A DNA stretch of 38,509 bases, from sequence record DRR723986_10911. One strand, written 5' to 3'. The notes below the pieces were generated by a model. That model made no database searches. It was given only the letters and a program-made list of their open reading frames with translations, and was not told the origin of the DNA. Of the stretch, positions 1 through 19,507 are shown in pieces. The translations under genes and the position numbers were made by a program. The stretch's first letter is position 1. Every line of letters begins with the position of its first letter.

Positions 1-444
1 TTGCGCAAATCCATAAGCGATGAGGACGTCAAGGCTTATTACGAGGCCAATGTACTCGATCAAAATTTTCAGCAGTGGAAGGTCAGCTATTACCTGAGCA
101 ATGATCAAAGCGATGTTCAGCGAACCCTGGAGAAATTGAAAAAGGGGGAGAAAGATGCGCTTGATCAATTAAAGCCGCTGGTCGAGCAAGGTGATGGCTA
201 TGCATCAGCCCAAGCTTTGCCTTACAACCTGGGGCGAGTGGTATCGAAAATGAAAAAGGGTGAGTTCAGTGAAGTACTTCGATTACGAAATGGCCTTTTG
301 GTGTTGAAAATCGAGGACAGCAGGCAGCTGAAAAAACCCACTGTGGAAGAGTTGAAGCAAGACATTGTTCAGGCCCTTGCTTTGGAAAAATTCAACGCCG
401 AACTTGAGCATGCACGCAGGCAGGCCAAAGTGGAGTTGGGTTAA
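1..444 (+). CDS. Peptidyl-prolyl cis-trans isomerase / foldase (PpiC/PrsA-like), 5'-truncated by window edge
   Basis: ORF is open from base 1. 'ISDEDVKAYYEAN' and 'MKKGEFSEVLRLRNGLLVLKIEDSRQLKKPTVEELKQDI...RRQAKVE' match the C-terminal pattern of parvulin-type periplasmic foldases; divergent. Confidence 0.7.
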   Translation: MRKSISDEDVKAYYEANVLDQNFQQWKVSYYLSNDQSDVQRTLEKLKKGEKDALDQLKPLVEQGDGYASAQALPYNLGRVVSKMKKGEFSEVLRLRNGLLVLKIEDSRQLKKPTVEELKQDIVQALALEKFNAELEHARRQAKVELG

Positions 445-495
445 CTAAGTGAAGTCAACAAGGCTTGAGCAACACTGGTAATCAAGGAGAACGTT

Positions 496-1188
496 ATGAA
501 GTCTATTTCCAATCCCGCAGCCCTTTTGCGAAAGCAAAAACAGGCGGGTTTTATCCAGGCGGCTTTGCTGTTCGGCATTGCCTTGATGACAGCAGTGCTG
601 GGTGGTTTTGCACTGGCCAACCGAAGCCCCACCTCACAAACCGATGTGGAGCAGGCGAAAGTGAATGCGTCTGTAATTTTGAAACAGGCCAGTGATTTGC
701 GCGATGGTGTGGCCAGGTACTCGAGTGATTTTGGTTCATCTGCAGTACAAACATCACTAGATTTTTCGAACACCACCAACCAGGGGCTTTTCGATCCTGC
801 TGCCCGTTATGCCTCACCACAAATCATGCCGACTACCGCTTTTGCAAACGGTGAAGACACGACGATCAAGGCGCCTTCAGCGTTGTCAGCAGGTCATTGG
901 TACATCAACAAAGTGACGCCGGGCAAATCATTGGCAACCCCAAGTGAAGATCCGATGGTGATATTGCCAGGTCTGCGAGCGGACGTGTGCGGACGTGTGA
1001 ATACTCTGTTGTACGGCAGTGATGCGATCCCCGTTGCAGGAACCGCTTTGTCGGTGTGGACCACCGGTACCACTGATGCAGGAATTTCTGCAATCAGCAC
1101 CGCACCAGATCCGGCAGGCTGGCCAGAAGGTTGTATCGCGACCAGTGACGCCAAATATGTGTACTTCAAGGTGATCCAGGAAAATTGA
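496..1188 (+). CDS. Type IV prepilin-like protein (candidate major pilin)
   Basis: AAGGAG RBS. Basic leader RKQKQAG|FIQAALLFGIALMTAVLGGFALA (class III signal, G|F, hydrophobic helix, no Glu+5), then an amphipathic helix and a C-terminal Cys pair (DVCGRVN...EGCIATS). Followed by a terminator. Confidence 0.65.
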   Translation: MKSISNPAALLRKQKQAGFIQAALLFGIALMTAVLGGFALANRSPTSQTDVEQAKVNASVILKQASDLRDGVARYSSDFGSSAVQTSLDFSNTTNQGLFDPAARYASPQIMPTTAFANGEDTTIKAPSALSAGHWYINKVTPGKSLATPSEDPMVILPGLRADVCGRVNTLLYGSDAIPVAGTALSVWTTGTTDAGISAISTAPDPAGWPEGCIATSDAKYVYFKVIQEN

Positions 1189-1204
1189 ATCGCCGAGCTT
1201 CGCC

Positions 1205-1230
1205 AAGCCCGCAAATGCGGGCTTTTTTTT
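1205..1230 (+). terminator. Rho-independent terminator
   Basis: AAGCCCGCA-AA-TGCGGGCTT stem with a T8 run, starting 16 nt after the pilin-like stop. Confidence 0.9.
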
Positions 1231-1330
1231 CGCCCCTTTTCACCAAAGCAAGGGATGTGGGCTTGTATCCATTCACCCGTTAACCCGGTATGCGCAGAAA
1301 TCCGTGCAGGCAACCAAGGTGAACGAAATC

Positions 1331-1867
1331 GTGAACAGGAAAATATTTCTGCAACAAAGCGGATTCATCGCTTCCTACATTTTGTACGGCATTGGCTTGC
1401 TGGCCATTGTGGGTGCTGCCTATGCACGCTTGAGCACCAATACGCAACAGGGCCAATCGGTTCAGGACACGGTCAACGAAGTTGCAGTGCAGCTGGAAGT
1501 AATCAAAGGAAAAATCATGTTGTGCGCAGCAGTGTATCCCGATGGCGATCATGCTCAGTTCGATACACGCCACGCGTACCCGGCTCCGGCCACAGCGGGC
1601 AATGCTGCGCTTATTTCGGCTGTGGTCTGCCCCACGCCCAATGGTCCATTGTCGCTTGCCTTGATGCCCGATGGAATTCCATTGCCCGTCAGTCCGCCTG
1701 ACTTCGAGGAGTGGGTGTATGAACATACCGAGGCAGGTGGTATCCGGCTTCGTTTAATCCCGCGGGTTAACGCAGGCGCAGCTGCAGCCCGGGAACGTCT
1801 GCTCCGTCAGTACGAAGGGTCAGTCATGGCCAGCGGCGATGAACTGGTGTTTGCGGTTTTGAACTAG
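1331..1867 (+). CDS. Second prepilin-like protein (minor pilin / pseudopilin-like)
   Basis: RKIFLQQSG|FIASYILYGIGLLAIVGAAYA class III-like N-terminus, no Glu+5, two Cys. GTG at 1331 preferred (AAGGTG 9 nt upstream) over the ORF-track start 1304. Confidence 0.6.
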   Translation: MNRKIFLQQSGFIASYILYGIGLLAIVGAAYARLSTNTQQGQSVQDTVNEVAVQLEVIKGKIMLCAAVYPDGDHAQFDTRHAYPAPATAGNAALISAVVCPTPNGPLSLALMPDGIPLPVSPPDFEEWVYEHTEAGGIRLRLIPRVNAGAAAARERLLRQYEGSVMASGDELVFAVLN

Positions 1868-1875
1868 AGGTTCGC

Positions 1876-4800
1876 ATGAAGAACAACAACAGCAAAATTA
1901 GCCCGGTCAGTTTTACACCGAAACCTCTGGTGGTAGCTGTGAAGCATGCTTTACCTTTTCTGGTTGCAATTGGTTTGGGTGCTGCTGTCAATTCGCCCGC
2001 GGTGGGTCGTTCGGGCGATTCTGCTGCCGCTTTTACCGCGACACAGTTAATCCGCCAATTCACCTTGAAAAATACCGTGGCACAAGTAAGCCAAGGTATG
2101 CAGGGCTATGTGAGCGAGGTCAATGGCGTACTGCGGGCCAATGAAATGGGGGGGCCAGTCAGTGGTTACCCGGTGGACATGGGCTCGGTTCCCTCATCGG
2201 TGAACATGCCTCAGCGAGATGGCGCTGGCCGACCTTTGGGTTACTGCGCTTGGGATAACAGCTCTTCCACATCCAACAGCAGTTTTCTGGCCGGGCAGGG
2301 TGTGGCCAATCCGCTGGTGTATGCCGTGGTATCACCTGGCCTGAATGGCAGCATGGAAACGAGTTGCGCTTTCATTCTTGCAAACCGCAGAGGCGTTGGT
2401 GACGATTATGTGCAGGTAACAGCGCCTTTCCAAGCATCTTCCAGGCAATTCAGAAGTGCCGTAAGTACCTATACACAATTAGCGACCCTACCCGGTGAAG
2501 AGGGTGATATCCGTTTGGTACTTGATACCAATAAATTGTATAGCTACGTGGGCGGTACATGGCAGCCGGTGGACGGCAGCAAATTCAATGACGATTCTGC
2601 GGCCAATGGTACAGGCGCAATCGCCTACACCGCAGGCAAGGTAACTGTGGCTGATTTTCAGGCTCAAAGCGCAACCATCACTGGCGCATTGTCTGGAATC
2701 GCTGCCACATTCTCAGGCAGCGTCACTGCCAGCAGTTTTATCGGCAACGGTGCAGCGTTAACTGATCTGAATGCCAGCAATGTGAACAGTGGTGTGTTGG
2801 GTGTTGAGTTTGGTGGTACGGGCGTTGATTCAAGCGCAGCTGCGCAGGGTAGTTTGCTGATTGGCACCGGTGCGGGGTTTGCTTTGGGTGCGATCAGCGC
2901 AGGTGACGGAATCGGTGTGCTCAACGGCGCAGGCAGCATCACGATTTCCAACACCGGTGTAATCAGTATCGCTGGCACCAACAACCAGGTGGTTGCAAGC
3001 GCCATGAATGGTGATGTAGTGCTCAGCTTGCCGCAAGACATTGCCACCACCAGCACGCCAACATTCGCAGGTGCATTTTTCAACGGCAATATTGATGTGG
3101 CGTCGATCAGCCAGGCAGGAGTACCCGCCACATTGGCTTTTCAGTATGCAAGCGACACTGGCTCAACCTTTTATGCCGAACCCAACCTGGGGCTGGGAAC
3201 AGGTGCATTGGCTGCACGAAAAAGTGCTGGCAATGTCGCCGTGGGTATCGACGTGCTGGGGAGAATGACCACACTCGGGTATTACGATGAATCGGGTACC
3301 TGGAACACGGGTGTGGGCTATCGGGCCCTCTACAGCAATGACTATGGCGATGAAAATACTGCCGTGGGTTACAAAAGCCTGTATGCCAACACCACCGGTT
3401 ACTACAATACTGCGATCGGTTCGCAGTCGATGTTATCGAATACAACCGGCGTGGCCAATACCGCTGTTGGTTACAACGCGATGCGAATGAACACCACCGG
3501 CACCGGTAACACATCACTCGGAGTGGCTTCACTGCACAGCAATACCACCGGTTTTCGAAATGTGGCGTTGGGCCGTGGTGCCATGTACTACAACACGACT
3601 GGTTATCGAAACGCCATGGTGGGTCAGGCTGCCCTGTATTTCAATACCGAGGGTCATCAAAACGCGGGTGTGGGCCAAGCATCCATTTATCTGAACACCA
3701 CGGGCTATTACAACGCATCAGTGGGCGCATATGGCTTGTATTACAACACCACCGGTGCCGAAAACTCGGCGTTCGGTGCGAACTCCCTGTTGGGCAATGT
3801 GAGCGGCAATCGAAACTCGGCGCTGGGTTATCAAGCCAATGTCTTGAGTGGCGCCTTGAATTACGCCAGCGCGATCGGTGCGGATTCGCGTGTGGGTACT
3901 TCCAATACCGTGGTGCTTGGTGCTCTGGGTGTGAATAAAAACCCAATCTATTCAACAATTGATGACCAAATTGTAATCGGCTCAACCGCACGCAACGATG
4001 CATTCCCAAATACAAAGTTGTACGTGGAAGGCAATGTGAATTTGAATGGCGATTTATATGCTGCCAATGCAACCTTCAGCGGTGCAGTCAACTTTCAAGG
4101 TGGTGTGCTAATTCCCACAGATCAAAAACTGCGCTTCGGCGGAGATTTTGAAAATTCGGACTCACAGTTCATTTATCGATCCAATCTTGCCGACGATCAA
4201 ACGTTGATGCGCGTGGTGATCGGCGACAATCCCAATTCCTTTGGTCATCCGCAAGCCGATGAATTTCAGATTGGTCGATTGGAAGGGGACCAACTCACTT
4301 ACACGCCGGTTTTTCGAGTGGCAGGCAACGGCGATACCCGCATTGCCGGCAATGTTGACATCAGTTCACTCAGCGTATCAGGGACACCCGCCACACTGGC
4401 TTTTCAGTATGCAAGCGACACGGGTTCATCTTTCTATGCGGAACCCAATTTAGGCATGGGTAACGGCGCATTGGCCGGGCGCAAGAATGCCGGGAATGTG
4501 GCTTTGGGCGACGGTGTGCTGGGTCGAATGACAACTCTGGGTTATGGAGAGGAATCAGGGACCTGGAATACGGGGGTAGGTTATCAAGCCCTGTACGGCA
4601 ACGATTACGGTGATGAAAACACCGCACTTGGCTACAAAAGCCTGTACAGCAACACCACCGGCTATTACAACACTGCGTCGGGCGCGTGGGCCATGTACGC
4701 CAATACCGAGGGCAGAAGCAACACAGCCACTGGCTATCGCAGCCTTGAAAGCAATACCAGTGGAAGCTTCAATGTGGCTTACGGTGCATACAGCCTGGGT

Positions 4801-7800
4801 TCAAACACCACAGGTGGCAGCAACGTGGCTGTTGGCGAGAGTGCTTTGTATTTCAACACCGATGGCGATTTAAACACTGCGGTTGGCAATTATTCAATGC
4901 TGTACAACAACACTGGCAGCTCAAATACAGCTTTGGGTGCCTGGGCCATGTACAACTTGAGTTTGGGTTCCTCCAATACTGCGATTGGGTCTTATGCCGG
5001 GTCATCTCTGGTCAACAGTCAATTGGTGACTGCCATTGGTGAATCGTCTGCACGCTCAGCCACCGGTTCAGAGAGTGTTGCAGTGGGTGTGTCTGCATTG
5101 TCTCAGTTTCAAGGCTCTTATCATGTTGCAGTGGGCAACAACGCTTTGGGCAGTTTGCTGACAGGTAGCTCAAATACAGCACTTGGTCACTATGCAATGC
5201 CTTCGCTGGGCAGTGGCGATACCAACATTTCAATTGGCCATCGCTCGGGCAATACCGTCACAACTGGCAGCCGAAATATTCTGATCGGCGACCTGGCTGG
5301 CAATGGAACTTTGACCAGCAACAACAACATCGCTTTGGGCCACAGCACAACGATAGGCGATTCGCTCTCGTATGCTGTCACGATTGGCAATGACTCCTCC
5401 GTCACAACATCCAATACAGTGGTGTTGGGCCGCACTGTGGACAACATCGTGATGGGTGCGACTGGGGATGACGGCAGTGGTCACAAACTTCAGGTAACCG
5501 GCGGACTGCGTGCATCTGGCAATGTATTTCTCAACACGGGCGATGCAGCCAATTACACGCAATTGAGGGATCTGCGTGTCATGTCTTCTGTGGATGATGC
5601 GGGTTGGGATCACCTTCGCATTTATACGCGGGGTCGGAAAACGTCGATTGATGCAGGTGGTGCAGAAGATGGCCTGGTGTTCCGGGTGGGTCAGGGCAAT
5701 TCAGGTGGTGTAGGTGATCAAACTTACAACACAGTGCTTACATTGAAACCCGATCAATCGGCGGTGTTTGCAGGCCGCGTCGATGTACAAAGCCTTTATG
5801 TCAACGGGGAGCAAGTCGCGCCCGTCAACAAGGCCAATATTGATGCGGCACTCACCTTTGCAAGTACGGTGGGTGCAGCCTACCCGCAAAGCAGTTTGGC
5901 CCTGGGAGTTAATGCGCTAGATGCAGACCCACGCGCAGGCAATATTGCGATCGGTGAAGGGGTGCTGACCAGTTTGTCGCCCAGTGCAATCAACACCGAA
6001 GGAATTTTCAACACAGGTGTGGGTTTCAATGCGCTCACCCTGAACAGCACAGGTTCAAACAATACCGCGGTAGGCACCTACACATTAAACCGTAACACCT
6101 CTGGTTACAGCAACACTGCCATGGGTGTTTACGCGATGGTCAACACCACAACCGGCTTTGACAACGTAGGTGTCGGTGTCAATGCACTTAATTTGAACAG
6201 CACAGGAAGTCGTAACAATGCCGTGGGTGTGAACGCCTTGTATAGCAACAGTACGGGTGCGCAAAACAATGTGTTGGGTACGAACGCCATGTTTTCGAAT
6301 ACGACGGGTTATCAAAACGTGGCAGTGGGCGACAACGCTTTGTACACCAACTCCGTGGGTTACCAGAACGTGGCTGTGGGTCCCGATGCCTTGTACAACA
6401 ACACCACTGGTTACCAAAACATCGCGATTGGCTACAATGCGCAACGCAATACAACATCCGGATATAGAAATACCGCAGCAGGTGCCAATGCGCTGTTAAA
6501 CAACACAGACGGTTTTCAAAACAGTGCGTTTGGTGCAAATGCACTGCTGGCGAATACCAGTGGCGATTACAACAGTGCATTTGGTACCAATAGCATGTTG
6601 AGTAACACCCTGGGTGAGCGAAATGTCGCAACCGGTTTCAATGCGTTGCAAGCCAATACAACAGGCTCCAGCAACGTAGCCGTGGGTGTTAACGCCATGC
6701 TTAAAAACACCACTGGCAACGAAAACACTGCAGTGGGTGACAATGCCTTGTTCGAGAACACCACAGGCCACTCCAATGCGGCGGTGGGTCGAGGTGCCTT
6801 GTACAACAACACCACTGGTTACTACAACATTGCGGTAGGCCGAAATGCCTTGCTCACCAACAGCACCGGTTACAACAACAGTGCCTTGGGCTACAACAGC
6901 CTTATTTTCAATACCACCGGGTACAATAACTCGGCTCTGGGGCGCAACACCTTGCAGAACAACACTACAGGTCTGAACAACACAGCCTTGGGCACTTATT
7001 CCATGTTCGGCAGTACGACAGGTATTGACAATACTGCAGTGGGCTTGAATTCTTTGTACTCCAACACCACGGGTAATTCCAACGTGTCTTTGGGTATGAA
7101 TGCCCTGTTTGGCAATGCAACGGGCAGTTACAACATGGGGTTGGGGCGGTCAAGTGATGTGTTGCTGAATAACCTGAACTATGCCTCCGCAATCGGCGCA
7201 TTTGCCCGGGTCACTACGTCGAATACGCTGGTGTTGGGTGCTTTGGGTGCGGGCAAAGACGGTGTTGTCTCTTCCGTGAATGATCAAGTGGTGATTGGTA
7301 CAACATCGCGCAACGACACCATTTCCAATACCATTTTTCACGTCGCGGGCATTTCCAATTTTACGTCCACGCTGTATGCAACGGGGGGTGCTCAAATTTC
7401 CACCAACCATTCGTTACACTTTGGACCAGACTCGGAGTCCACCGATAGATTGTCCATTTATCGTTTTAATCCGGCGTTTGATCAATCAATCTTGCGAATA
7501 TCCATCGGCGACAATATCAAAACCTTTGGTGAGGCAACCGGAGATGAATTGCAGGTCGGGCGACTCAACCCGGATAACTCTTTCAATCCTGTATTCCGCG
7601 TAGCAGGCAATGGCGATGTCATCGCCAGTGGTTACATGCAAGCCACAGCCTTCAACGTCAGTTCCGATCGCCGGCTTAAAACCAATATTCAGGCGCAAGA
7701 TTCCAGTTCTGTTTTAAGCAGGCTTGAGCAATTGCAAACCTACAGTTACGAGTATTTGTCCAATCCCAACCTGGGGCGTCGAATTGGTGTCATTGCCCAG

Positions 7801-8682
7801 GAAATTCAGGGCCTGTTTCCTGAGGCTGTTGCTACACGTGCCGATGGCATGATGTCGGTGGACTACAGCGCTTTGGGTGCCATGGCGGCCATGGGCGTTG
7901 GCCAGTTAAGCAAGCAGGTCAAAGTACTCGACAAAACAGTGGCAGATCAAGGCCAGCGAATTGCAGTGCTGGACGACCGCATCAACCAGCATGACACCCG
8001 CATCACCTCGCTTGAAGGTTGGAAAGTGGAGGCCGGCAAACGCATGGATGAGATGCACAATGCAATTGATCTGAATATCCAGAAAATCGCGGCCAATACA
8101 GTGGCCATTCAAACCAATTCAGTCGCAATTGAGCGGCTGGACGACGCCTTGTTCACGCTGGATGGACAGGTGAAAAACAATTCAGATTTGATCAACAACA
8201 TCAATTCACGCTGGGCAAAAAACTTCAGCGAGTCTGCAGACGGTTCGCTCCTGACCGTGAATGCAGTTGAGTTGAAGGTCAGCAATTTCACAGCGCAGCA
8301 GTTGCGTACAAATTCAGTGTATTCGCAACGGCTTGAAGCTGAAATGGCCCGAATTGCAGACCTGGAAGTGAATAACTTAAAGGCCAATTCTGCTGTAGCC
8401 AACACGGTGCGGGCCGAACAAGTGAATACCGGTTCGGCTCAGGTTTATGCCGGGGTGGGTTCACCCGCTGTGCTATTTGCTGCCAAATCAGATGGTCACT
8501 ACACCGTCAGTACCAGCGCACTCGATGGCAGCTATGCCACTGCAACCGTGATCGTGAATGCCGGGCAAGCCAAAGTGGTGTCGGTGGCCAGCGAGGGCAT
8601 TGAACTATATGCAGAGGGGAATGTGGTGAAGGTGATTGCTGCTGGCAAATCGATCAAAGCAAGCTGGATCAAAATGGGGTAA
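1876..8682 (+). CDS. Giant (2268 aa) tail-fibre-like surface protein/adhesin with 17-aa beta repeats and a Peptidase_S74-like intramolecular chaperone
   Basis: GAGG RBS, hydrophobic N-terminal signal-like segment, about 47 copies of xN(T/S)AxGxxAL/MxxNTTG, S74 motifs SDRRLKTNI...GVIAQE...FPEAV...VDY, then a heptad coiled coil. Confidence 0.85.
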   Translation: MKNNNSKISPVSFTPKPLVVAVKHALPFLVAIGLGAAVNSPAVGRSGDSAAAFTATQLIRQFTLKNTVAQVSQGMQGYVSEVNGVLRANEMGGPVSGYPVDMGSVPSSVNMPQRDGAGRPLGYCAWDNSSSTSNSSFLAGQGVANPLVYAVVSPGLNGSMETSCAFILANRRGVGDDYVQVTAPFQASSRQFRSAVSTYTQLATLPGEEGDIRLVLDTNKLYSYVGGTWQPVDGSKFNDDSAANGTGAIAYTAGKVTVADFQAQSATITGALSGIAATFSGSVTASSFIGNGAALTDLNASNVNSGVLGVEFGGTGVDSSAAAQGSLLIGTGAGFALGAISAGDGIGVLNGAGSITISNTGVISIAGTNNQVVASAMNGDVVLSLPQDIATTSTPTFAGAFFNGNIDVASISQAGVPATLAFQYASDTGSTFYAEPNLGLGTGALAARKSAGNVAVGIDVLGRMTTLGYYDESGTWNTGVGYRALYSNDYGDENTAVGYKSLYANTTGYYNTAIGSQSMLSNTTGVANTAVGYNAMRMNTTGTGNTSLGVASLHSNTTGFRNVALGRGAMYYNTTGYRNAMVGQAALYFNTEGHQNAGVGQASIYLNTTGYYNASVGAYGLYYNTTGAENSAFGANSLLGNVSGNRNSALGYQANVLSGALNYASAIGADSRVGTSNTVVLGALGVNKNPIYSTIDDQIVIGSTARNDAFPNTKLYVEGNVNLNGDLYAANATFSGAVNFQGGVLIPTDQKLRFGGDFENSDSQFIYRSNLADDQTLMRVVIGDNPNSFGHPQADEFQIGRLEGDQLTYTPVFRVAGNGDTRIAGNVDISSLSVSGTPATLAFQYASDTGSSFYAEPNLGMGNGALAGRKNAGNVALGDGVLGRMTTLGYGEESGTWNTGVGYQALYGNDYGDENTALGYKSLYSNTTGYYNTASGAWAMYANTEGRSNTATGYRSLESNTSGSFNVAYGAYSLGSNTTGGSNVAVGESALYFNTDGDLNTAVGNYSMLYNNTGSSNTALGAWAMYNLSLGSSNTAIGSYAGSSLVNSQLVTAIGESSARSATGSESVAVGVSALSQFQGSYHVAVGNNALGSLLTGSSNTALGHYAMPSLGSGDTNISIGHRSGNTVTTGSRNILIGDLAGNGTLTSNNNIALGHSTTIGDSLSYAVTIGNDSSVTTSNTVVLGRTVDNIVMGATGDDGSGHKLQVTGGLRASGNVFLNTGDAANYTQLRDLRVMSSVDDAGWDHLRIYTRGRKTSIDAGGAEDGLVFRVGQGNSGGVGDQTYNTVLTLKPDQSAVFAGRVDVQSLYVNGEQVAPVNKANIDAALTFASTVGAAYPQSSLALGVNALDADPRAGNIAIGEGVLTSLSPSAINTEGIFNTGVGFNALTLNSTGSNNTAVGTYTLNRNTSGYSNTAMGVYAMVNTTTGFDNVGVGVNALNLNSTGSRNNAVGVNALYSNSTGAQNNVLGTNAMFSNTTGYQNVAVGDNALYTNSVGYQNVAVGPDALYNNTTGYQNIAIGYNAQRNTTSGYRNTAAGANALLNNTDGFQNSAFGANALLANTSGDYNSAFGTNSMLSNTLGERNVATGFNALQANTTGSSNVAVGVNAMLKNTTGNENTAVGDNALFENTTGHSNAAVGRGALYNNTTGYYNIAVGRNALLTNSTGYNNSALGYNSLIFNTTGYNNSALGRNTLQNNTTGLNNTALGTYSMFGSTTGIDNTAVGLNSLYSNTTGNSNVSLGMNALFGNATGSYNMGLGRSSDVLLNNLNYASAIGAFARVTTSNTLVLGALGAGKDGVVSSVNDQVVIGTTSRNDTISNTIFHVAGISNFTSTLYATGGAQISTNHSLHFGPDSESTDRLSIYRFNPAFDQSILRISIGDNIKTFGEATGDELQVGRLNPDNSFNPVFRVAGNGDVIASGYMQATAFNVSSDRRLKTNIQAQDSSSVLSRLEQLQTYSYEYLSNPNLGRRIGVIAQEIQGLFPEAVATRADGMMSVDYSALGAMAAMGVGQLSKQVKVLDKTVADQGQRIAVLDDRINQHDTRITSLEGWKVEAGKRMDEMHNAIDLNIQKIAANTVAIQTNSVAIERLDDALFTLDGQVKNNSDLINNINSRWAKNFSESADGSLLTVNAVELKVSNFTAQQLRTNSVYSQRLEAEMARIADLEVNNLKANSAVANTVRAEQVNTGSAQVYAGVGSPAVLFAAKSDGHYTVSTSALDGSYATATVIVNAGQAKVVSVASEGIELYAEGNVVKVIAAGKSIKASWIKMG
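3301..3828 (+). repeat. Intragenic array 1: ~10 copies of a 17-aa (51-bp) repeat
   Basis: WNTGVGYRALYSNDYGD / ENTAVGYKSLYANTTGY / ... in translation; degenerate at the DNA level. Confidence 0.85.
4564..5340 (+). repeat. Intragenic array 2: ~15 copies of a 16-17-aa repeat
   Basis: WNTGVGYQALYGNDYGD ... NNIALG in translation; second half more degenerate. Confidence 0.8.
6007..7146 (+). repeat. Intragenic array 3: 22 full copies of a 17-aa (51-bp) repeat
   Basis: FNTGVGFNALTLNSTGS ... SNVSLGMNALFGNATGS counted by eye in strict 17-aa register. Confidence 0.9.
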
Positions 8683-8755
8683 CCGCGAAGGGTGAAGTCG
8701 AAACCAGTCGGCTCGAATAATCTGGTGCTGTTCCTATCATTCTTCAAACGAAGGT

Positions 8756-9847
8756 GTGACAGTGCAAAACCAGCTTGTTCAGTCCAATCATTACCCGGTT
8801 CACACGCAAGTGCACTGCAATCCCGAGTGGATTGCCTTGCAGCAACAACTCGGTTGTACTGTGTTGCTGGGCACTCGCAGCATGGGTGATTTGCATGTGT
8901 TGAGTACACCAACCCCCGATTCCGTGAATTTTCATGTGGTGAGGTTTCCCCTCTGTATGGGTATGGCTGTGCAGGGCAATCACCTTGCAGTGGCCTGCAA
9001 ATCAGACATCCGCCTGTATTACGATTTACTGTCGCACCCGCAGGTGTCCAGTCCGGTTTATCAGCGCAGCTACAGTCCACGCAGTATTCATTTCACTGGC
9101 GACCTGGATACACACGAACTCGATTTCGATCGGCATGGGCACCCCCTTTTTGTTGCCGCACGTTACAGTTGCATCGCTGAAGTCAGCCCGGTACACAGCT
9201 TCAAACCAGTGTGGCAACCCAAATTTATCAAGCGGTTGACCCCCGAGGATTGTTGTCACCTCAATGGTCTTTGTATGGACCAAGGTGAATTGAAGTATGC
9301 CAGCATGTTTGCTGCAACCGCCGAGCCAAAGGGTTGGAGAACCATGCCATTTAACAGCGGTCAGGTGTGGTCGACCGACGATCAAGAGCCAGTGTGCACC
9401 GGGTTGGTTCAGCCACATAGCCCGCGTTTGTATCGTAGCGAGCTCTATGTTTTGAACAGTGGTGCGGGTGAAATTGGACGAATTGATTTGAACAGTGGGC
9501 ATTACGATTGCATCGCCTTTGTGGGCGGTTATGGTCGAGGCTTAAGCTTCATTGGCGACTACGCAATTTTTGGTATCAGCAAGCCGCGGCACGATGGCTA
9601 TGTAACCAACTTTCCATTGCATGACCGTTTGAAAGCACTGCATCTGCCAGATCGTTGCCAGCTGATCGCCGTTAATTTAAAAACCGGTCACGTTATCCAG
9701 GCGATTACTTTTGAAGGCGCCGCACGTGAGTTTTTCGACACCGTAGTGATTCCCGATTGTCGCAACGGGGTGATCATGAATCTGGATGAGGCACAGCATC
9801 CGCAACTGGTGACCTGTGAGCAGCATGATTGCGCCATGCCAGCATGA
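8756..9847 (+). CDS. TIGR03032 (DUF4915) family protein
   Basis: Family-like motifs FTGDLDTHE, HSFKPVWQPKFI, PEDCCHLNGL, PHSPR, GRGLSF, GISKPR. True start may be GTG 8762 (AAGGT 6 nt upstream). Confidence 0.85.
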   Translation: MTVQNQLVQSNHYPVHTQVHCNPEWIALQQQLGCTVLLGTRSMGDLHVLSTPTPDSVNFHVVRFPLCMGMAVQGNHLAVACKSDIRLYYDLLSHPQVSSPVYQRSYSPRSIHFTGDLDTHELDFDRHGHPLFVAARYSCIAEVSPVHSFKPVWQPKFIKRLTPEDCCHLNGLCMDQGELKYASMFAATAEPKGWRTMPFNSGQVWSTDDQEPVCTGLVQPHSPRLYRSELYVLNSGAGEIGRIDLNSGHYDCIAFVGGYGRGLSFIGDYAIFGISKPRHDGYVTNFPLHDRLKALHLPDRCQLIAVNLKTGHVIQAITFEGAAREFFDTVVIPDCRNGVIMNLDEAQHPQLVTCEQHDCAMPA

Positions 9848-10424
9848 ATTGTTAAAAAAGCACACGGCATGCGTTGTGTGGTTGACTGGCTTGAGTGGGG
9901 CTGGAAAAACCACGCTGGCGATGGCGTTGGAGAAAGAGTTGTACAACAGGGGTGTTCACACGTCTTTACTGGATGGTGACGGCTTGCGGCTCGGTTTGAA
10001 TAGTGATCTTGGTTTTTCACCAGAAGACCGTGCCATCAATGTGCAACGCACAGCACAAGTGTGCAAGCTGATGGTGGATGCCGGCCTCGTGGTGATTGTG
10101 TCCATGATTTCGCCTCAAGCCCAGAGCCGCATCATGGCCCGCTCCTTGTTCAATCCCGGGCAATTTTTTGAAGTGCATGTGAATGCACCTCTTCAGGTGT
10201 GTGAACAACGCGATCCCAAAGGCCTCTATCGCAAAGCGCGTCGCGGCGACATTGCGCAGTTCACCGGGGTCAGCGCTACTTATGAAGTACCCGAAAGTCC
10301 CTGTCTGATTTTGCAAACCCACCAGTACACTGTTTCCGAATGCCTGGAGCAACTTTTTGCAATCCTGGAGCCTGCTTTGGGCCGGTATTCAATAAACGGG
10401 AGAATGAATCAACAACCGGATTGA
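9816..10424 (+). CDS. cysC: Adenylyl-sulfate (APS) kinase
   Basis: VVWLTGLSGAGKTT P-loop, LLDGD..R.GLNSDLGFS, ISP, RDPKGLY, FTGVSATYE.P. Overlaps the upstream gene; start could be ATG 9825. Confidence 0.95.
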   Translation: MSSMIAPCQHELLKKHTACVVWLTGLSGAGKTTLAMALEKELYNRGVHTSLLDGDGLRLGLNSDLGFSPEDRAINVQRTAQVCKLMVDAGLVVIVSMISPQAQSRIMARSLFNPGQFFEVHVNAPLQVCEQRDPKGLYRKARRGDIAQFTGVSATYEVPESPCLILQTHQYTVSECLEQLFAILEPALGRYSINGRMNQQPD

Positions 10425-10448
10425 CAATCAATCGGTTTCGGGTAAGGT
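10421..10448 (+). promoter_or_regulatory. Putative sigma70 promoter of the epimerase-like gene
   Basis: TTGACA-16 nt-TAAGGT; the -35 lies inside an inverted repeat (10414-10437). Confidence 0.45.
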
Positions 10449-10479
10449 TAAGATCCTCTACCGCGCACGCAGAACCAAT

Positions 10480-11640
10480 ATGGGAATCAAAATGGAGGCC
10501 TTTCCGGCCCCGGATCAGCTCAAAAATGCAGCACCCAAAGCAGAGGAACTTCAAACCAAAGAATTGGCCGAGCTTGAGGCGGTCGATCCAGGCTTGGTGA
10601 AACAGGCTCGCCAGAAACAAACTGTACTGGTCACAGGGCATGCAGGTTTTATCGGATTTCACACGGCCAAGGCGCTCCTGGAGCGTGGCGACAAAGTGAT
10701 TGGCTTTGATTCACTGAACAGTCACTATGACACCCGGCTCAAGCGTGAACGCTTGACTATGCTCGATGAAATTGCAAAGGCCACTGGATCGAAATACCAT
10801 TCAGTGCGCGCTGATCTTTGCGACAGTACGCAGCTGCACGAATGCTTGGAAACTTACAAAGTTCAGCGGGTCATTCACCTCGCCGGGCAAACCGACAAAT
10901 TTTTGTCGCAGGACAAACCTGCCGAGTGTGTGCAAAACAATATCAACAGTTTTGTGTCGCTGTTGGAAGCTTGCCGACATTTCAAAATTCACCACTTAAC
11001 GTATGCCAGCAGCCATGCTGTATACGGGGCGGGTTTCCAGAAACCCATGAGCGAGCGCGACAGTGCAAACCACCCACAGCGCCTGGATGCCGCCACTCAG
11101 CGTGCCTGCGAACTCATGGCCCATTCCTACAGTCACCTGTTTAATTTGCCCACCACTGGCTTGCGGTTTTTCTCGGTGTACGGCCCTTGGGGCAGACCCG
11201 ATTCGGTGCTGTTCGCGTTCACCAAACGTATTCTCGAAGGCAAGCCCATTCAAATTTACAACGATGGTCGTAACACCCGGGACTACACCTACATTGCTGA
11301 TTTGGTGGAGGCGGTGCTGCGTGCCAGCGACACCCCCGCCGAGCCCAACCCGGTGTGGCTGGTTGAGGCGCCTGATCAGGCCACGAGTAACGCACCCTGG
11401 CGAATTTTGAACGTGGGCAACAGCTTGCCAGTTTCAATTGAGGAATTGATCGCAGCGCTGGAACATGCCTTGGAGAAAACCGCCATCAAGGAATACATCA
11501 CCGGCCCGATTCTGGAAAAGAGCCAAAGCTGTGCCGATGTCACTGCCTTGCAATCGGCCACTCAATTCAGGCCTGTCACCCCCCTGGCGCAGGGCATCGC
11601 TGAATTCGCCGCCTGGTATCGTATGTATCACCAGGTGTAA
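10480..11640 (+). CDS. UDP-glucuronate 4-epimerase-like extended SDR with degenerate active site
   Basis: LVTGHAGFIGFH, ELMAHSYSHLFNLPTTGLRFFSVYGPWGRPD, RDYTYI, ATSNAPWRILNVGN are typical of this family, but YAATK is replaced by DAATQ. Confidence 0.85.
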   Translation: MGIKMEAFPAPDQLKNAAPKAEELQTKELAELEAVDPGLVKQARQKQTVLVTGHAGFIGFHTAKALLERGDKVIGFDSLNSHYDTRLKRERLTMLDEIAKATGSKYHSVRADLCDSTQLHECLETYKVQRVIHLAGQTDKFLSQDKPAECVQNNINSFVSLLEACRHFKIHHLTYASSHAVYGAGFQKPMSERDSANHPQRLDAATQRACELMAHSYSHLFNLPTTGLRFFSVYGPWGRPDSVLFAFTKRILEGKPIQIYNDGRNTRDYTYIADLVEAVLRASDTPAEPNPVWLVEAPDQATSNAPWRILNVGNSLPVSIEELIAALEHALEKTAIKEYITGPILEKSQSCADVTALQSATQFRPVTPLAQGIAEFAAWYRMYHQV

Positions 11641-11788
11641 TGCTTCTTGATGTTTACTCAGTGTCCAAGTAGTGTCGGCTTAGCGACACTTCAGGCACAT
11701 CTAATTCCTGTCATCTCCCGGTAACAAGGGGATACACACTTAAATCCACAACGCCAAAGTCACAAGGCGGAGATGGCAGGAGACACCC

Positions 11789-13933
11789 ATGACCGTAGTA
11801 CCCTTCAACAAACTGTTGCTTGCGGCCCTTCTCGGGGCCACCTTGGGCCTCGCAGCCTGTGGCAGCGACGATACCCCGGCGAGTTTGGCTGGCCCGAACA
11901 ATCCCACCAATCCCAATGAGGAAGTTGAGCCCACCATTACCTTGGTGGCCAACTTTAAAAACCCGGATCCTGAGGCAGTACAACGGCAGTTCACGTCCAC
12001 GGCATGCAGCGACAATGCCACACAACCTCGTGCAGGTGGCAACAGTTACAGCGTGAACCTGCAGTCTGCAAGTGGCCACAATATTGCGTTCACTGTGTTC
12101 GAGCCTGCCGAGTTTAATTGTGATCGGGGTAATCCTTTGGTGCTGGAAGGCCACGGTTATGGCGGCTCGCGCGCGAGCAGCCCTCGCGGCATCATGGGCG
12201 ACCTGATTGAGGCTGGTGCTGGGGTGATTAGTATTGACCAACGCGGCTTTGGTGAAAGCGGCGGATCTGTCCGCGTCTTGGATCCAGACTTTGAAGGGCA
12301 AGACCTGCTTCAAATCCTCGATTGGGCTGAGGCCAACCTGGACTGGTTGCGCTACGCCAGCACGCCCAAACCTGCGGGCAACCGTGAATTCAACATGGTG
12401 GCTGGAGCCACGGGTGGCAGCTACGGTGGTGGCTATCAACTGTTGATTCACAACATTGATCCACTGAAGCGCCTGGATGCGCTCACCCCCGATATTGCAT
12501 GGAATGACCTGCGCTACAGCTTGAACCCTGGCGGCGCGTATGGCATCGAAAATTTTGAGCCCGCCGAGGGCAATGTCAAGCCCACCGGCACCGTGAAGTC
12601 GGGATGGGCCTTGCTGTTGGTGGCCGGCGGCGAATCGGGTTCTTTGAGCCCAAAGCTGCAAGCAGGCGACCCCATGGCTTTGCAAACCAGCGGGCAAGAC
12701 AACTTAATCCGCGAAACCCTGTTGCGCGGCGCCACCGCCAATCGTTTTCCAGAGGGAGCGCTGGAGTTTTTCCGTTACCACAGCCCAAGTTATTGGTGCG
12801 ATTCTGAAGCCCCCGGCGCGCAAAGCTTCCTTCAAAGCGAAGTAACGCCTGGTCTGGCCCAGAAAACACCGGACCCGGTCGATATTCTGTTCACTCAAGG
12901 TTTTCGGGACACCTTGTTCAACTTCAACGACGCATTCCACAACTTCAGTTGTTACCGCGCGCTTGAGGATGACAAAGGCAAAAAAGCCGATGTACGTTTG
13001 CTGACCCACCAAAGTGGTCACATTCTGCCCCTGTCGCCTTCGATGGTCCCTGGTTTGGCTGACCTGACGGAGCAGGGCGCCCAAAACGGTCTCAATGAAA
13101 TTGAGTTCCAAAAGCCAGGTGGCCCTTTTGCTTGTGGTGACCTGAGTATTCCAGAGGCCCAATTTGCATTCCTTGTTGAAAAGTTGTTTACGCCCCAGGA
13201 AGCTGCTGCGATCAAAAACGCCAGCGAATCCAATGCGTTCACAACCTTGGCTGCAAACAAAGGCAAGGTTTGCCTCAGCCTGAATGACGACGTGGGACAA
13301 GGCACGGCCAGTGAAAACGCCGCAGTGTGGGTGAATGAAAACACATTGTTCAGCAACCTGGGGCCGCAAGCCAAGGGCCAAGCAACCAATAGCAATATTC
13401 AGCCTGTGGCCATTGATTTTACGCCAGGGGCTGATCCACTGAATGTGCTCACCAGTGCGGTGACCGGCATTTTGCGTTATCCGTTTGCGCCCGCGGTTAT
13501 GCCCATTGACTTGCCCGCCGGTGTGAATGTGGTGGCAGGTATTCCAACTGCGACCTTCGAAATCGCACCACCTGTGGATATGTTGATGAACCCTGTGTGT
13601 GGTCAAATTTATTCAGCCACGGCCATGTCACCCATTGGGTTGGCAGGTTTGGAGCCTGGCTGCGACCCCATGTTGTTCGTTGGGCTCGGCGTGAACAGAA
13701 ACGGCGCCTGGCGTTTGATCGATGATCAGGTGACGCCCATTCGTGGCTTTGGCAAGCGCCATGTGGAAATGACTGGCGTGGCCGAACGTTTGGCCGAAGG
13801 TGAAACCTTGGGCTTGCTGGTGTATGGTTATCACCCACAATATTTGGCAACCGCCTCTCGCGATCTGGTCACCCCCTTGGTCGCACTGCGCGGTACTTTG
13901 AATTTACCCACATTGCAAAATTTAATGCCATAA
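11789..13933 (+). CDS. Alpha/beta-hydrolase lipoprotein (CocE/NonD, peptidase S15-like)
   Basis: Lipobox LAAC, GHGYGG, IDQRGFGESGG, nucleophile elbow GGSYGG, QGFRDTLFNF; AGGAG RBS. Confidence 0.85.
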   Translation: MTVVPFNKLLLAALLGATLGLAACGSDDTPASLAGPNNPTNPNEEVEPTITLVANFKNPDPEAVQRQFTSTACSDNATQPRAGGNSYSVNLQSASGHNIAFTVFEPAEFNCDRGNPLVLEGHGYGGSRASSPRGIMGDLIEAGAGVISIDQRGFGESGGSVRVLDPDFEGQDLLQILDWAEANLDWLRYASTPKPAGNREFNMVAGATGGSYGGGYQLLIHNIDPLKRLDALTPDIAWNDLRYSLNPGGAYGIENFEPAEGNVKPTGTVKSGWALLLVAGGESGSLSPKLQAGDPMALQTSGQDNLIRETLLRGATANRFPEGALEFFRYHSPSYWCDSEAPGAQSFLQSEVTPGLAQKTPDPVDILFTQGFRDTLFNFNDAFHNFSCYRALEDDKGKKADVRLLTHQSGHILPLSPSMVPGLADLTEQGAQNGLNEIEFQKPGGPFACGDLSIPEAQFAFLVEKLFTPQEAAAIKNASESNAFTTLAANKGKVCLSLNDDVGQGTASENAAVWVNENTLFSNLGPQAKGQATNSNIQPVAIDFTPGADPLNVLTSAVTGILRYPFAPAVMPIDLPAGVNVVAGIPTATFEIAPPVDMLMNPVCGQIYSATAMSPIGLAGLEPGCDPMLFVGLGVNRNGAWRLIDDQVTPIRGFGKRHVEMTGVAERLAEGETLGLLVYGYHPQYLATASRDLVTPLVALRGTLNLPTLQNLMP

Positions 13934-16838: not shown

Positions 16839-16865
16839 GAACAGAGACACACTGGAGGAATTTTT

Positions 16866-18233
16866 ATGTTGAAGTTTCAAACAAAGCTCACAGCACTGGC
16901 TCTGGCAAGCTTGTTTGCTGTTGGCACTGCGCAAGCGGCTGTCAGCGCGCAAGAAGCGGCAAAGCTGGGCACAACCCTGACTGAATTTGGTGCTGAAAAA
17001 GCGGGCAACGCCGCTGGCACCATTCCAGCCTACACCGGTGGCCTCACCAAGGCACCAGCAGGCTACAAGCCAGGGCAACACTTGGTAGACCCGTTTGCCA
17101 ATGAGAAGCCTTTGTTCACCATCACTGGTGCCAATGCGGATCAGTACAAGGCCAACCTGTCACCAGGTCAGCTGGAAATGCTGAAAAAGTACCCCACATT
17201 CAAAATGAATGTGTACAAAACCCACCGCACAACGGCTTACCCCAAGAAAGTGTTGGACGCAGCCAAGAAAAACGCAACCAACGCCAAAACTGAAAACAAC
17301 GGTAACTCCGTGGTTGGTTTTGAACAGGCCATTCCTTTCCCAATTCCACAAAATGGTGTTGAGGTGATTTGGAACCACCTGACCCGTTATCGCGGTGGTG
17401 CAGCCAAGCGCGATTTCGTTCAAGTACCTGTTGAGCGCGATGGCACCTTCATTATTAACCGCATTGAAGACACCCTGGTGTTCCCGCGCAACCTGCCTAA
17501 TTTTTACAAGGCTGGCGAAGATGACAACATCAACTTCTACTTCTATCAAATCCTGAAGAGCCCGGTTTCTGTGTCCGGCAACGTATTGCTGGTGCACGAC
17601 ACACTGGACCAGGTTACTGAAGGTCGCCGTGCATGGCAGTACAACGCGGGTCAGCGTCGTGTTCGTCGCGCACCTCAAGTGGCCTACGACTCACCAGGTA
17701 CAGCGGCTGATGGCTTGCGTACAACCGATAACTACGATTTGTTCAATGGCGCGCCAGACCGTTATGAGTGGAAGTTGAAAGGCAAGAAGGAAATGTACAT
17801 TCCGTACAACTCCTATCGTTTGGCCAGCAACAAGCTGACTTACAAGGAAATCCACCAGCCACTGCACATGAACCCAGAGCACCTGCGCTATGAGTTGCAC
17901 CGCGTGTGGGAAGTGGAAGCAACCTTGAAGAGCGATGCACGCCATATTTACGCCAAGCGTGTATTCTTCGTGAACGAAGACAACTGGCAAGCCTCCATCA
18001 TCGATCACTACGATGGCAAGGGCGCATTGTGGCGCGTGGCTGAAGCCCACAACATTCAGTACTACAACGAAATGGTTCCTTTCTACGCTGCTGAAGTCTT
18101 GTACGACTTGCAAGCGGGCCGTTACCTCACCATTGGTTTGACCAATGAAGCAGAACAGCCCTTCGTATTCGACTTCACACCAGACCGCGCCAACTACACG
18201 CCGGCTGGCCTGCGTCGACTCGGCGTTCAGTAA
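16866..18233 (+). CDS. DUF1329 family periplasmic protein
   Basis: AVSAQEAAKLGTTLTEFGAEKAGNAAGTIPAYTGG, PFPIPQNGVEVIWNH, RRAWQYNAGQRRVRRAP, RYELHRVWEVEATLK. Confidence 0.95.
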   Translation: MLKFQTKLTALALASLFAVGTAQAAVSAQEAAKLGTTLTEFGAEKAGNAAGTIPAYTGGLTKAPAGYKPGQHLVDPFANEKPLFTITGANADQYKANLSPGQLEMLKKYPTFKMNVYKTHRTTAYPKKVLDAAKKNATNAKTENNGNSVVGFEQAIPFPIPQNGVEVIWNHLTRYRGGAAKRDFVQVPVERDGTFIINRIEDTLVFPRNLPNFYKAGEDDNINFYFYQILKSPVSVSGNVLLVHDTLDQVTEGRRAWQYNAGQRRVRRAPQVAYDSPGTAADGLRTTDNYDLFNGAPDRYEWKLKGKKEMYIPYNSYRLASNKLTYKEIHQPLHMNPEHLRYELHRVWEVEATLKSDARHIYAKRVFFVNEDNWQASIIDHYDGKGALWRVAEAHNIQYYNEMVPFYAAEVLYDLQAGRYLTIGLTNEAEQPFVFDFTPDRANYTPAGLRRLGVQ

Positions 18234-18248
18234 TAGCTAAGTAAATTC

Positions 18249-18286
18249 AGGCTACAAGGGGGCATGGTCCCTTTGTAGCCTTTTTT
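18249..18286 (+). terminator. Rho-independent terminator inside the cluster
   Basis: AGGCTACAAGGGGGC-ATG-GTCCCTTTGTAGCCT stem with a T run. Confidence 0.8.
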
Positions 18287-18304
18287 AATTTCAAAGGATC
18301 TTCA

Positions 18305-19477: not shown

Positions 19478-19507
19478 ACGGACCCAACACACGGACGCAA
19501 CACAACA

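Follow-up and report, generated by a model that had tools for sequence, protein, structure and literature searches.

The 38,509-nt stretch of DNA analysed here (record DRR723986_10911; the whole of it is called the window below) comes from a Limnobacter (Burkholderiales) and carries the distal half of a conserved gene cluster, in which a filament machine, two atypical pilins and a giant fibre protein with an S74 intramolecular chaperone are encoded one after another. This gene linkage is observed directly. The model that we favour, and hold to be somewhat probable, is that these genes specify a dedicated type IV filament (T4F) system of compact make-up, similar in its logic to type IVb pili and type II secretion systems (T2SSs), that exports a trimeric, S74-matured fibre or displays it at the filament tip. 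Synteny strongly suggests a functional link between filament and fibre, and the machine presumably exports the fibre. The system is a conserved, undescribed variant built from known kinds of parts. Seven co-directional open reading frames (ORFs) on the plus strand occupy positions 1-11640 of the window (Table 1); every gene that an initial annotation had listed there is present on that strand and where it was placed, including the repeat fibre of 2268 residues said to begin 8 nt after the second pilin gene.

The initial annotation had also supposed that a T4F- or T2SS-like machine lies to the left of the window, and secretin, ATPase and platform genes were indeed found upstream in Limnobacter relatives and in metagenome contig L077. 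In the complete genome G012, six genes on the same strand lie directly upstream of the peptidyl-prolyl isomerase (PPIase) gene: a secretin (541 aa; Pfam PF00263, E 3e-14); p285, a periplasmic protein of 285 aa with a signal sequence and a Gly-rich tail; an ATPase of 566 aa that combines T2SSE (PF00437, E 1.2e-73) with an MshEN N-domain (PF05157, E 7.1e-07); a platform protein (456 aa; T2SSF, PF00482, E 1.2e-18); and p289 and p161 (289 and 161 aa), bitopic membrane proteins with one hydrophobic segment each. The full-length PPIase of relatives has 284 aa and an N-terminal hydrophobic anchor (PF13145, E 1.3e-11 for the orthologue at L016:912-1766), and its gene stands directly upstream of pilin A in 19/19 metagenome loci of at least 6 kb. 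The whole cluster is operon-like, spans ~17-20 kb and runs in the order lipoprotein secretin, p285, ATPase, platform, p289, p161, PPIase, pilin A, pilin B, fibre. This full order, from the secretin to the N-terminal domain of the fibre, occurs in 16 of 19 Limnobacter genomes, and that of G005 is cut by a contig end and otherwise consistent. Used as a single query, pilin A found matches in 22 of 26 Limnobacter species genomes and in none of 35 genomes of other genera; p289 is still present in two of the four negative Limnobacter genomes, both incomplete metagenome-assembled genomes. Contig L077 is 97.9% identical to positions 1-11175 of the window in one piece and has the whole machine upstream, which suggests the same arrangement in the window's own genome. 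A weak hint of transcription, which DNA carry-over could also explain, is that 25/30 and 27/30 bins of positions 1-12000 are covered by contigs assembled from two RNA libraries belonging to a single study.

The two proteins that follow the PPIase bear class III-type signals. The N-terminus of pilin A reads MKSISNPAALLRKQKQAG up to the predicted cut and FIQAALLFGIALM beyond it, that is, an 18-aa basic leader ending in Gly and then FIQAALLFGIALMTAVLGGFALA; in pilin B, FLQQSG precedes the cut and FIASYILYGIGLL follows it. Among 16 pilin A orthologues the leader varies in length and sequence and Gly18 with the next 25 residues is nearly invariant. An alignment of 91 members of the pilin A family extends this pattern: the Gly at -1 (Gly18) is invariant, Phe stands at +1 in 71 of the 91, the leader is net positive and 7-29 aa long (median 13), and N169 as well as the protein's two conserved cysteines, C165 and C213, is at least 90% conserved. 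In pilin B, Gly(-1), which is Gly20, and Tyr25 at +5 are invariant in 22/22 sequences; the gene was called from a GTG at 1304, and its orthologues point to a start near 1331. A variable leader ahead of a fixed Gly(-1) and mature N-terminus typifies class III signals that are cleaved, and such signals on two proteins, as first annotated, thus go beyond chance. Calling the pilins atypical was likewise accurate, since neither family has Glu5: Asp or Glu occurs between +1 and +22 in 0/91 sequences of the pilin A family and 0/22 of pilin B. This missing glutamate is the main oddity of the system. Searched against 1.84 billion proteins, the pilin A profile retrieved at least 633 cluster representatives at E <=0.001 and 206 at <=1e-10; of ten that were inspected, most are metagenomic, and all either lack a name or are labelled "hypothetical".

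Structural models point the same way. AlphaFold2 models of pilins A and B reached predicted local distance difference test (pLDDT) values of 90.9 and 82.1, and a VIA-align search of 48,161 chains placed pilins at the head of both lists. For pilin A the top matches were CofA (9iuf; Z 7.1, root-mean-square deviation (rmsd) 5.4, 159 residues aligned) and Clostridioides difficile PilA1 (Z 7.1, rmsd 3.1, 110 aligned), with TcpA (Z 5.7), EpsG (5.0), PulG (4.7) and PilS further down. Pilin B matched C. difficile PilA1 (Z 9.2, rmsd 2.8, 110 aligned), CofA (Z 8.0, rmsd 2.9, 133 aligned) and TcpA (Z 6.7), with a helical background of at most 6.0. Foldseek, run with the pilin A model against the PDB, also listed pilins first (CofA, TcpA), at a non-significant E of 0.34 or worse, and we therefore relied on VIA-align. 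The Z scores are modest, and it is the run of pilins atop both lists that makes a type IV pilin fold likely for the two models. Profile comparison by hhalign related pilin B to the pilin A family over the N-terminal 69 columns (96.9% probability).

A GC-rich hairpin with a T run stands behind the pilin A gene in 17 of 19 Limnobacter loci, with stem sequences that differ. Conservation of this terminator-like element leads us to regard pilin A as the abundant subunit and pilin B as a minor one: the hairpin would act as an attenuator that sets a high ratio of pilin A to pilin B and fibre, with pilin A the probable major subunit and pilin B probably a minor or tip pilin. In three runs an additional C follows position 1200, immediately ahead of this hairpin.

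The fibre is rich in Gly, Ala, Asn, Ser and Thr, and a Pfam scan of the whole 2268 aa returned Peptidase_S74 only (residues 1930-1985; cut-off 22 bits). The motif S1930-D-R-R-L-K1935 (SDxxxK) lies inside this match, and phmmer aligned the protein with the long tail fibre of phage S16 (6f45) through NVSSDRR(I/L)K. SDxxxK is described as catalytic, and self-cleavage at the catalytic Ser has been shown for Bd3182 of Bdellovibrio (PMC10769870). Given its S74 domain the fibre should be trimeric, and by analogy with Bd3182 the 339 residues from Ser1930 are predicted to be released after trimerisation. An N-x-x-x-G motif recurs 45 times in the shaft, in three blocks, and 35 of these copies keep a 17-residue spacing; the fibre has 61 N-x-S/T sequons, and its orthologues range from 1493 to >3384 aa. 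One RNA-library contig joins position 4676 of the window to 6147 with 27 other letters between, a repeat-length variant of the fibre.

At the other end of the protein, 17 orthologues differ in the length and sequence of the first ~44 residues, and the residues right after them are invariant. Aligned 330-residue N-terminal segments of these orthologues share 57 invariant columns, 38 of them inside residues 45-240, in contrast to the variable remainder of the fibre, and the only two cysteines of the fibre are residues 124 and 164. We propose that this N-domain is a docking or anchor module. That it might itself be a pilin module was considered and rejected, as its profile reached only 8.9% and 1.3% probability against pilin families. 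A complex prediction for pilin B (21-187), pilin A (19-230) and fibre (45-245), run without alignments or controls, gave no support (ipSAE values of 0.01 and 0.00 against a mark of 0.34) and carries no weight in either direction. Orthologues are named "tail fiber domain-containing protein" by NCBI and, in some cases, trimeric autotransporter adhesin by JGI; the Pfam scan found no YadA-type C-terminal anchor, and the fibre ends in a coiled-coil and a small domain (...KASWIKMG).

The fibre can be likened to the S74 subgroup of the mosaic adhesive trimer (MAT) fibres of Bdellovibrio bacteriovorus, as their architecture is described: signal peptide, conserved N-domain, a repeat or beta-helical shaft of variable make-up and the S74 SDxxxK motif, in proteins encoded, as here, on the chromosome and outside prophages (PMC10769870). 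MAT fibres differ in being ~1000 aa long and forming a set of 21 paralogues with, in that account, no known anchor, whereas Limnobacter has a single fibre gene behind pilins and a machine; in the account of Caulton et al. 2024, type IV pili are raised for MAT fibres only as a possibility (PMC10769870). S74 has also been met together with pilins in the fusions IPR012902-IPR030392 of Raynaud et al. 2021, which resemble the Limnobacter pair in joining a type IV pilin to S74, and both imply a pilus-presented module (PMC8179133). Those fusions are single chains with a canonical class III signal, whereas in Limnobacter pilin and fibre are encoded separately, the fibre with a putative Sec-type leader; the survey reads S74 there as a peptidase activity within an unexplained architecture (PMC8179133).

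The junction between pilin B and fibre is tight, often an 8-nt gap or a 4-nt overlap, and gap or overlap stays within 24 nt in 16/17 Limnobacter loci and in 4/4 cleanly called loci of a distant clade. That clade came from a metagenome scan with a pilin A sub-alignment, its sample restricted to one subfamily by the pattern GFIQ[GA]x[IL]LF[GA], which yielded 48 loci. The 19 of at least 6 kb that were analysed comprise nine Limnobacter-like loci and ten on high-GC freshwater contigs (57-69% GC, against 52% in the window). In the ten, the ATPase is 42-45% and pilin A 27-33% identical to Limnobacter, and the order from secretin to giant ORF is the same as far as the contigs extend. Their p285-like gene has the NPL(I/M/V)RP motif and Gly-rich stretches in common with p285; pilin B reads RG/FIMGYILFAL around the cut (slash), with Tyr at +5 again; and the giant ORF behind pilin B, present in each locus, reaches from at least 1285 to at least 3173 aa, most leaving the contig. 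Just one is closed (L113, 1857 aa); S74 is matched in it at 49% identity, together with an SDxRxK motif, and the fibre N-domain is recognisable across the clade at 26-35% identity. As a second, independent association, adjacent genes for a pilin A-like and a pilin B-like protein were found in G674, from another Burkholderiales family, at a distance of 5 kb from an S74 protein of 1271 aa. From G674 and the high-GC loci together we conclude that the association of pilins with an S74 fibre recurs and that the ten-gene layout is conserved across a deep split; the co-occurrence of pilins and S74 fibre, part of what the initial annotation wanted to see elsewhere, extends over the genus and a distant clade.

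Beyond these loci, a pilin A search gave three weak N-terminal matches in a class-level sample of 400 genomes; among 401 genomes sampled at order level it found Limnobacter and G674 again and, in G519, a single match to the N-terminus. This wider search scored at most seven candidates per genome in its first pass and may have missed some. A search for the fibre N-domain in longer proteins (8000 candidates scored) found Limnobacter-like fibres only, weak evidence on its range. The leaders of the G674 pair (L066, G674:C183:1-20000) end in RG/N and GG/G, without the Phe, and the pair adjoins a FlgE-like hook gene, with a 1250-aa DUF5907 protein also 5 kb away. The G519 match, in the region G519:C1:1321083-1325759, is a 418-aa ORF whose N-terminus resembles the pilin A leader and helix (E 8.6e-09); it lies ~3.5 kb from a GspE/PilB-like ATPase (39% identity) and may be a further relative of the pilin A family in another T4F system.

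Could pilins and fibre be neighbours and still work apart? An ordinary pilus might be co-regulated with a mechanically independent, MAT-like adhesin that takes a different way out of the cell, such as the general T2SS, and is held at the surface by its N-domain, which binds an outer-membrane or lipopolysaccharide (LPS) element, the synteny reflecting a shared role in attachment. Machine and pilins occur without a fibre in G008, the fibre without ATPase or platform in G007, and pilins with an S74 protein and no machine nearby in G674, as such independence would allow; a separate GspE-type ATPase is encoded elsewhere in the genome (510 bits for T2SSE), and the anchor of Bdellovibrio MAT fibres is described as unknown and assumed to be a surface element (PMC10769870). 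However, the order PPIase, pilin A, pilin B, fibre, with its gap of at most 24 nt, is kept at 27-45% protein identity and different GC, and order kept across such deep divergence makes co-regulation alone hard to accept; moreover, G007 and G001 look like decaying loci and not like working alternatives. We judge this explanation unlikely.

Of the genomes compared, the one nearest to the window, G001, illustrates such decay: a deletion joins the N-terminus of the ATPase to the last ~90 residues of the TIGR03032 protein, and this fusion makes the ancestral arrangement visible. The hybrid is a 199-aa ORF on the minus strand (L002:2555-3154, corresponding to window position 9573 onward) with an MshEN-like front, and platform, p289, p161, PPIase, both pilins and fibre are gone with ~15 kb. 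Other variants were seen. In L071 the secretin is joined to the PPIase, pilin B is reduced to a stub and there is no fibre; the fibre of L072 has only ~210 aa, possibly through assembly collapse of its repeats; protein P0216 joins the N-terminus of pilin B to DUF4915; and in one species (G026, L029:9336-11923) pilin A is separated from pilin B by two inserted genes of 462 and 400 aa. In G008, a divergent Limnobacter species, locus L031 (G008:C7:26885-46884) encodes two paralogues of pilin A besides the machine, PPIase and pilin B, and its secretin, 786 aa long, has moved behind the pilins.

How the parts would act together can be pictured from type IVb pili. In the TcpF/TcpB and CofJ/CofB pairs, a trimeric minor pilin serves as primer of the pilus and takes out a trimeric exoprotein, which is held by its N-terminus (PMC9565799, PMC10120004). 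By analogy with this closest worked-out precedent, we envision a scenario in which both pilins are processed after Gly by the one prepilin peptidase of the cell and pilin A is polymerised as the abundant subunit on a primer of pilin B. Pilin B would be a scarce pilin for priming or for the tip, its synthesis kept in pace with that of the fibre encoded 8 nt behind it. The fibre would pass the inner membrane via Sec, and its S74 domain would drive trimerisation in the periplasm and then cut itself at Ser1930, with the PPIase of the cluster aiding folding. The invariant N-domain, with its two cysteines, would dock on the pilin B tip, and filament growth would carry the fibre through the secretin, to stay at the pilus tip or be released. 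Such a fibre would probably serve in adhesion, be it to surfaces, to particles or to other cells.

A different outcome of the same export step is secretion without a surface pilus, in which a short periplasmic endopilus of pilins A and B pushes the folded fibre out through the secretin and the fibre is released, to the medium or the matrix, and not bound to a tip. Export by this machine is the core that this model and ours have in common. The ATPase scores best against GspE (244 bits; PilB 226), the operon has a single cargo gene and no retraction ATPase accompanies it in the cluster, and pilins without Glu5 may make long filaments poorly, all of which would suit an endopilus. Against it, the cluster encodes just two pilins, where a T2SS has a GspG-type major pseudopilin and four minor ones; searches for GspC, GspL and GspM families came back empty and the T2SS equivalog scores are far below their cut-offs; and the hairpin behind pilin A suggests a subunit in large excess. 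We regard an endopilus as distinctly unlikely.

Several points weigh against the model of a dedicated filament that exports or displays the fibre. Filament formation, pilin cleavage and export are all deduced from genes and models. Glu5 is "almost invariably" present in bacterial pilins, and although it is dispensable for cleavage, Glu5 mutants of classical pilins form no homopolymeric pili (PMC4471445); with Glu5 absent from both pilins, a normal filament is therefore not assured. The initial annotation had expected ATPase, platform, secretin and prepilin peptidase in the upstream flank: in relatives the first three are there, in GspE/PilB-like, GspF-like and secretin form, and neither a prepilin peptidase nor a retraction ATPase lies within the cluster. 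One A24 peptidase gene (PF01478) per genome was found in 3/3 Limnobacter genomes, adjoining a type IVa pilB. The three accessory proteins p285, p289 and p161 have no recognisable family: profiles of p289 and p161 found nothing below E 0.4 among PDB sequences, and an Atlas search led to "hypothetical" clusters, with a weak PAP_PilO lead for p289 (score 0.85, 15% of members), such that topology and gene position are what would suggest GspL/GspM-like roles for the two. Both the Sec-type leader in fibre residues 1-44 and the lipobox-like Cys motif of the secretin orthologues (LAGC, LSAC) were judged by eye. G007 has lost p285, ATPase, platform and part of p289 and retains the fibre together with the TIGR03032/cysC cassette behind it. 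The rearranged G008 locus has no fibre, and the fibre N-domain was found nowhere in this 100%-complete genome; machine and pilins without a fibre mean that the machine does not strictly depend on it. Finally, no T4F machine lies within 20 kb of the pilin pair of G674.

ATPase, platform, secretin and pilin fold place the system in the T4F superfamily. Leader, Gly(-1) and hydrophobic tract, pilin fold, traffic ATPase, platform and secretin, by which such systems are recognised (PMC4471445), are all present, and Glu5 is missing from both pilins. Within the superfamily, the scores miss all equivalog cut-offs for T2SS, type IVa pili, type IVb pili and the mannose-sensitive haemagglutinin (MSHA) pilus: 244 bits for GspE (cut-off 630), 59 for GspD (351), 51.5 for GspF (424), 100.6 for MshL (250.2) and 54.8 for the PilN family (287.65). 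Together with a literature search that found no description of this Limnobacter pilin-fibre system, these scores bear out the initial impression that it has no clean match among described systems.

Comparison with individual systems shows where it departs from each. With T2SS and MSHA it shares an ATPase of T2SSE plus MshEN type and the local order secretin-x-ATPase-platform; those systems have at least five pilins, whereas the Limnobacter cluster has two, and no GspC/L/M or MshI/J/K families were detected in it. From MSHA it differs further in that the best full-length scores of its ATPase are to GspE and PilB, despite the MshEN-type N-domain. PilY1/PilC are large Sec-exported proteins thought to ride minor pilins at the tip of type IVa pili. 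Unlike them, the fibre contains no PilY1/PilC Pfam family; it consists of repeats followed by a trimerising chaperone and is no beta-propeller protein. The likeness to the toxin-coregulated pilus (TCP; TcpA/TcpB/TcpF) of Vibrio cholerae and colonisation factor antigen III (CFA/III; CofA/CofB/CofJ) of enterotoxigenic Escherichia coli goes further: one major and one minor pilin, a secretin that in Limnobacter is putatively also of lipoprotein type, and one cargo gene in the operon, its product exported, or here predicted to be exported, by Sec (PMC9565799, PMC10120004). TcpA and CofA are among the best structural matches of both Limnobacter pilins, and the TCP cargo trimer hooks the trimeric tip pilin by its mature N-terminus (PMC9565799, PMC10120004), the part that is invariant in the Limnobacter fibre. 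Yet the Limnobacter pilins are Glu5-less and match no pilin family, the operon lacks a prepilin peptidase, ATPase and secretin score nearer to GspE/PilB and MshL than to type IVb models (all below cut-off), and a PPIase is fixed in the cluster. The cargo differs as well: that of type IVb pili is small and globular with a disordered signal, whereas the Limnobacter cargo runs from 1500 to >3300 aa with a folded N-domain of 200 aa. A tentative possibility, which goes beyond the model we favour, is a distinct and unnamed T4F branch, with Glu5-less pilins that follow another packing rule, a threefold minor-pilin tip bearing a phage-type, S74-matured trimeric fibre as a swappable, long-reach adhesin, and a periplasmic PPIase for its folding. 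In such a branch the fibre of some strains might, doubtfully, also be modified by the TIGR03032/CysC cassette that stands behind it, in a reaction dependent on 3'-phosphoadenosine-5'-phosphosulfate (PAPS).

The initial annotation had counted the TIGR03032 and CysC genes, which it saw followed by an epimerase homologue, as a modification cassette belonging to the system, and as a fixed part this was not supported. The TIGR03032 gene follows the fibre gene by 73 nt and is overlapped by cysC over 32 nt, and the two are gained and lost together at the same site. They stand behind the fibre in 6 of the 13 genus loci in which the region is visible; six are without them, and G013 retains a 31-residue remnant. 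Neither gene lies behind the fibre in the closed distant-clade locus L113, and two species have an unrelated, oppositely oriented gene at the fibre-epimerase site. TIGR03032 occurs in 42 of 401 sampled Pseudomonadota genomes, and in 30 of these loci, searched over 1.5 kb to either side, neither cysC nor S74 nor any of these pilins turned up. With the pair present in 6/13 loci and absent from the distant closed locus, we class it as accessory and strain-variable and not as core. The epimerase, present in 13/13 loci beside an S15 peptidase and also in the fibre-less G001 and L071, is probably chromosomal backbone and a neighbour only, as it is kept regardless, even in fibre-deletion variants.

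The tight spacing and paired turnover at this site would nevertheless accord with the idea that TIGR03032 and CysC, with or without the epimerase, decorate the fibre chemically, for example by PAPS-dependent sulfation or with a glycan. The 61 sequons of the fibre would offer sites, and two of the four unusually long TIGR03032 ORFs scanned from the 30 loci are fusions with Glyco_transf_41 (GT41), which hints weakly at a role for TIGR03032 in macromolecule modification. Some members of GT41 modify proteins. In both fusions (L123, L126) TIGR03032/DUF4915 forms the C-terminal part of an ORF of at least 838 aa with GT41 in front; the other two long forms have 605 and 657 aa and N-terminal parts without a family. 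Against decoration stand the patchy distribution of the pair, the unrelated genes that occupy the site in other species and the failure to detect any sulfotransferase family; nor did TIGR03032 show a known activity, a PDB relative by sequence or an entry in the literature, and Atlas returned its own family only. We consider decoration very doubtful.

A last possibility is that the fibre is a leftover of a prophage or tailocin that came to lie beside pilus genes by chance. It would account for the S74 domain, the tail-fibre-like repeats and the tail-fibre names given by NCBI, but the Sec-like leader, the genus-conserved N-domain and a fixed chromosomal position in at least 16 species speak against it. 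A Pfam scan of 24 large ORFs across the 38.5-kb window, which beyond 11.6 kb took in ORFs of 150 aa or more, found no phage structural, replication or lysis families (four ORFs were without any family). With no phage genes in these scans the prophage reading was rejected, and a chance remnant is extremely improbable.

Table 1. Features of the filament-fibre locus and the genes behind it in the window (positions in nt; a slash marks the putative cut).
Feature	Position	Strand	Remarks
PPIase, 3' end	1-444	+	last 147 aa; parvulin/Rotamase_2 type; Pfam PF13145, E 2.8e-13
Pilin A (P0002, 230 aa)	496-1188	+	no Pfam/NCBIfam family; basic leader, Gly-Phe, ~21 hydrophobic residues
Terminator-like hairpin	1205-1224	+	8-bp stem, 6 G-C pairs, T run; directly 3' of pilin A
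Pilin B (P0003, 187 aa)	1304-1867	+	no Pfam/NCBIfam family; basic leader, Gly-Phe, ~21 hydrophobic residues
Giant fibre (P0004, 2268 aa)	1876-8682	+	starts 8 nt past the P0003 stop; Pfam Peptidase_S74 only
Fibre residues 1-44, putative Sec-type signal peptide	1876-2007	+	by eye: basic n-region, hydrophobic core, ...SPAVG/RS
Fibre residues 45-240, conserved N-terminal domain	2008-2595	+	SAAAFTATQLIRQFTLKNTV..., RDGAGRPLGYCAWDN, two invariant Cys
Variable shaft: three 17-residue repeat blocks and spacer modules	3232-7131	+	N-T-A-x-G...N-T-T-G type
Fibre residues 1930-2268: S74 intramolecular chaperone, coiled-coil, C-terminal domain	7663-8679	+	PF13884, 53.6 bits
TIGR03032/DUF4915 protein (363 aa)	8756-9847	+	299.9 bits, cut-off 251.5
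CysC, adenosine-5'-phosphosulfate (APS) kinase (202 aa)	9816-10424	+	TIGR00455, 229.6 bits, cut-off 138.7
Short-chain dehydrogenase/reductase (SDR) NAD-dependent sugar-nucleotide epimerase/dehydratase (386 aa)	10480-11640	+	PF01370, E 3.3e-51

The remainder of the window, 11.7-38.5 kb, holds unrelated housekeeping genes. Positions 15027-21847, behind a TetR regulator, carry DUF1302, DUF1329 (LolA-like), BNR-repeat and MMPL genes, a conserved outer-membrane/transporter cluster. A 496-aa ORF at 28077-29567 has a TadE/G-like N-terminal motif (PF13400, E 8.6e-07) and is flanked by ParA-like ATPase genes at 23439-24236 and 26830-27453; it may be part of a separate Tad-type system.

The locus seems to be under turnover, as seen in the spread of fibre lengths, the independent deletions of G001, G007 and L071 and the swappable cassette site, and a pattern of this kind is typical of exposed surface structures. 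Export and cell anchoring of MAT fibres are stated to be unknown (PMC10769870), and the Limnobacter locus offers a testable candidate, in a cultivable and harmless genus, for how phage-like trimeric fibres reach the cell surface and stay there. Should the link between pilins and fibre fail, a conserved, unnamed T4F variant and a MAT-like adhesin would still stand. If instead the cluster does represent an unnamed T4F branch, it would give a first genetic answer to how MAT-like fibres are delivered to the surface and held on it. A working filament made of subunits without Glu5 would change a rule of bacterial pilus assembly.

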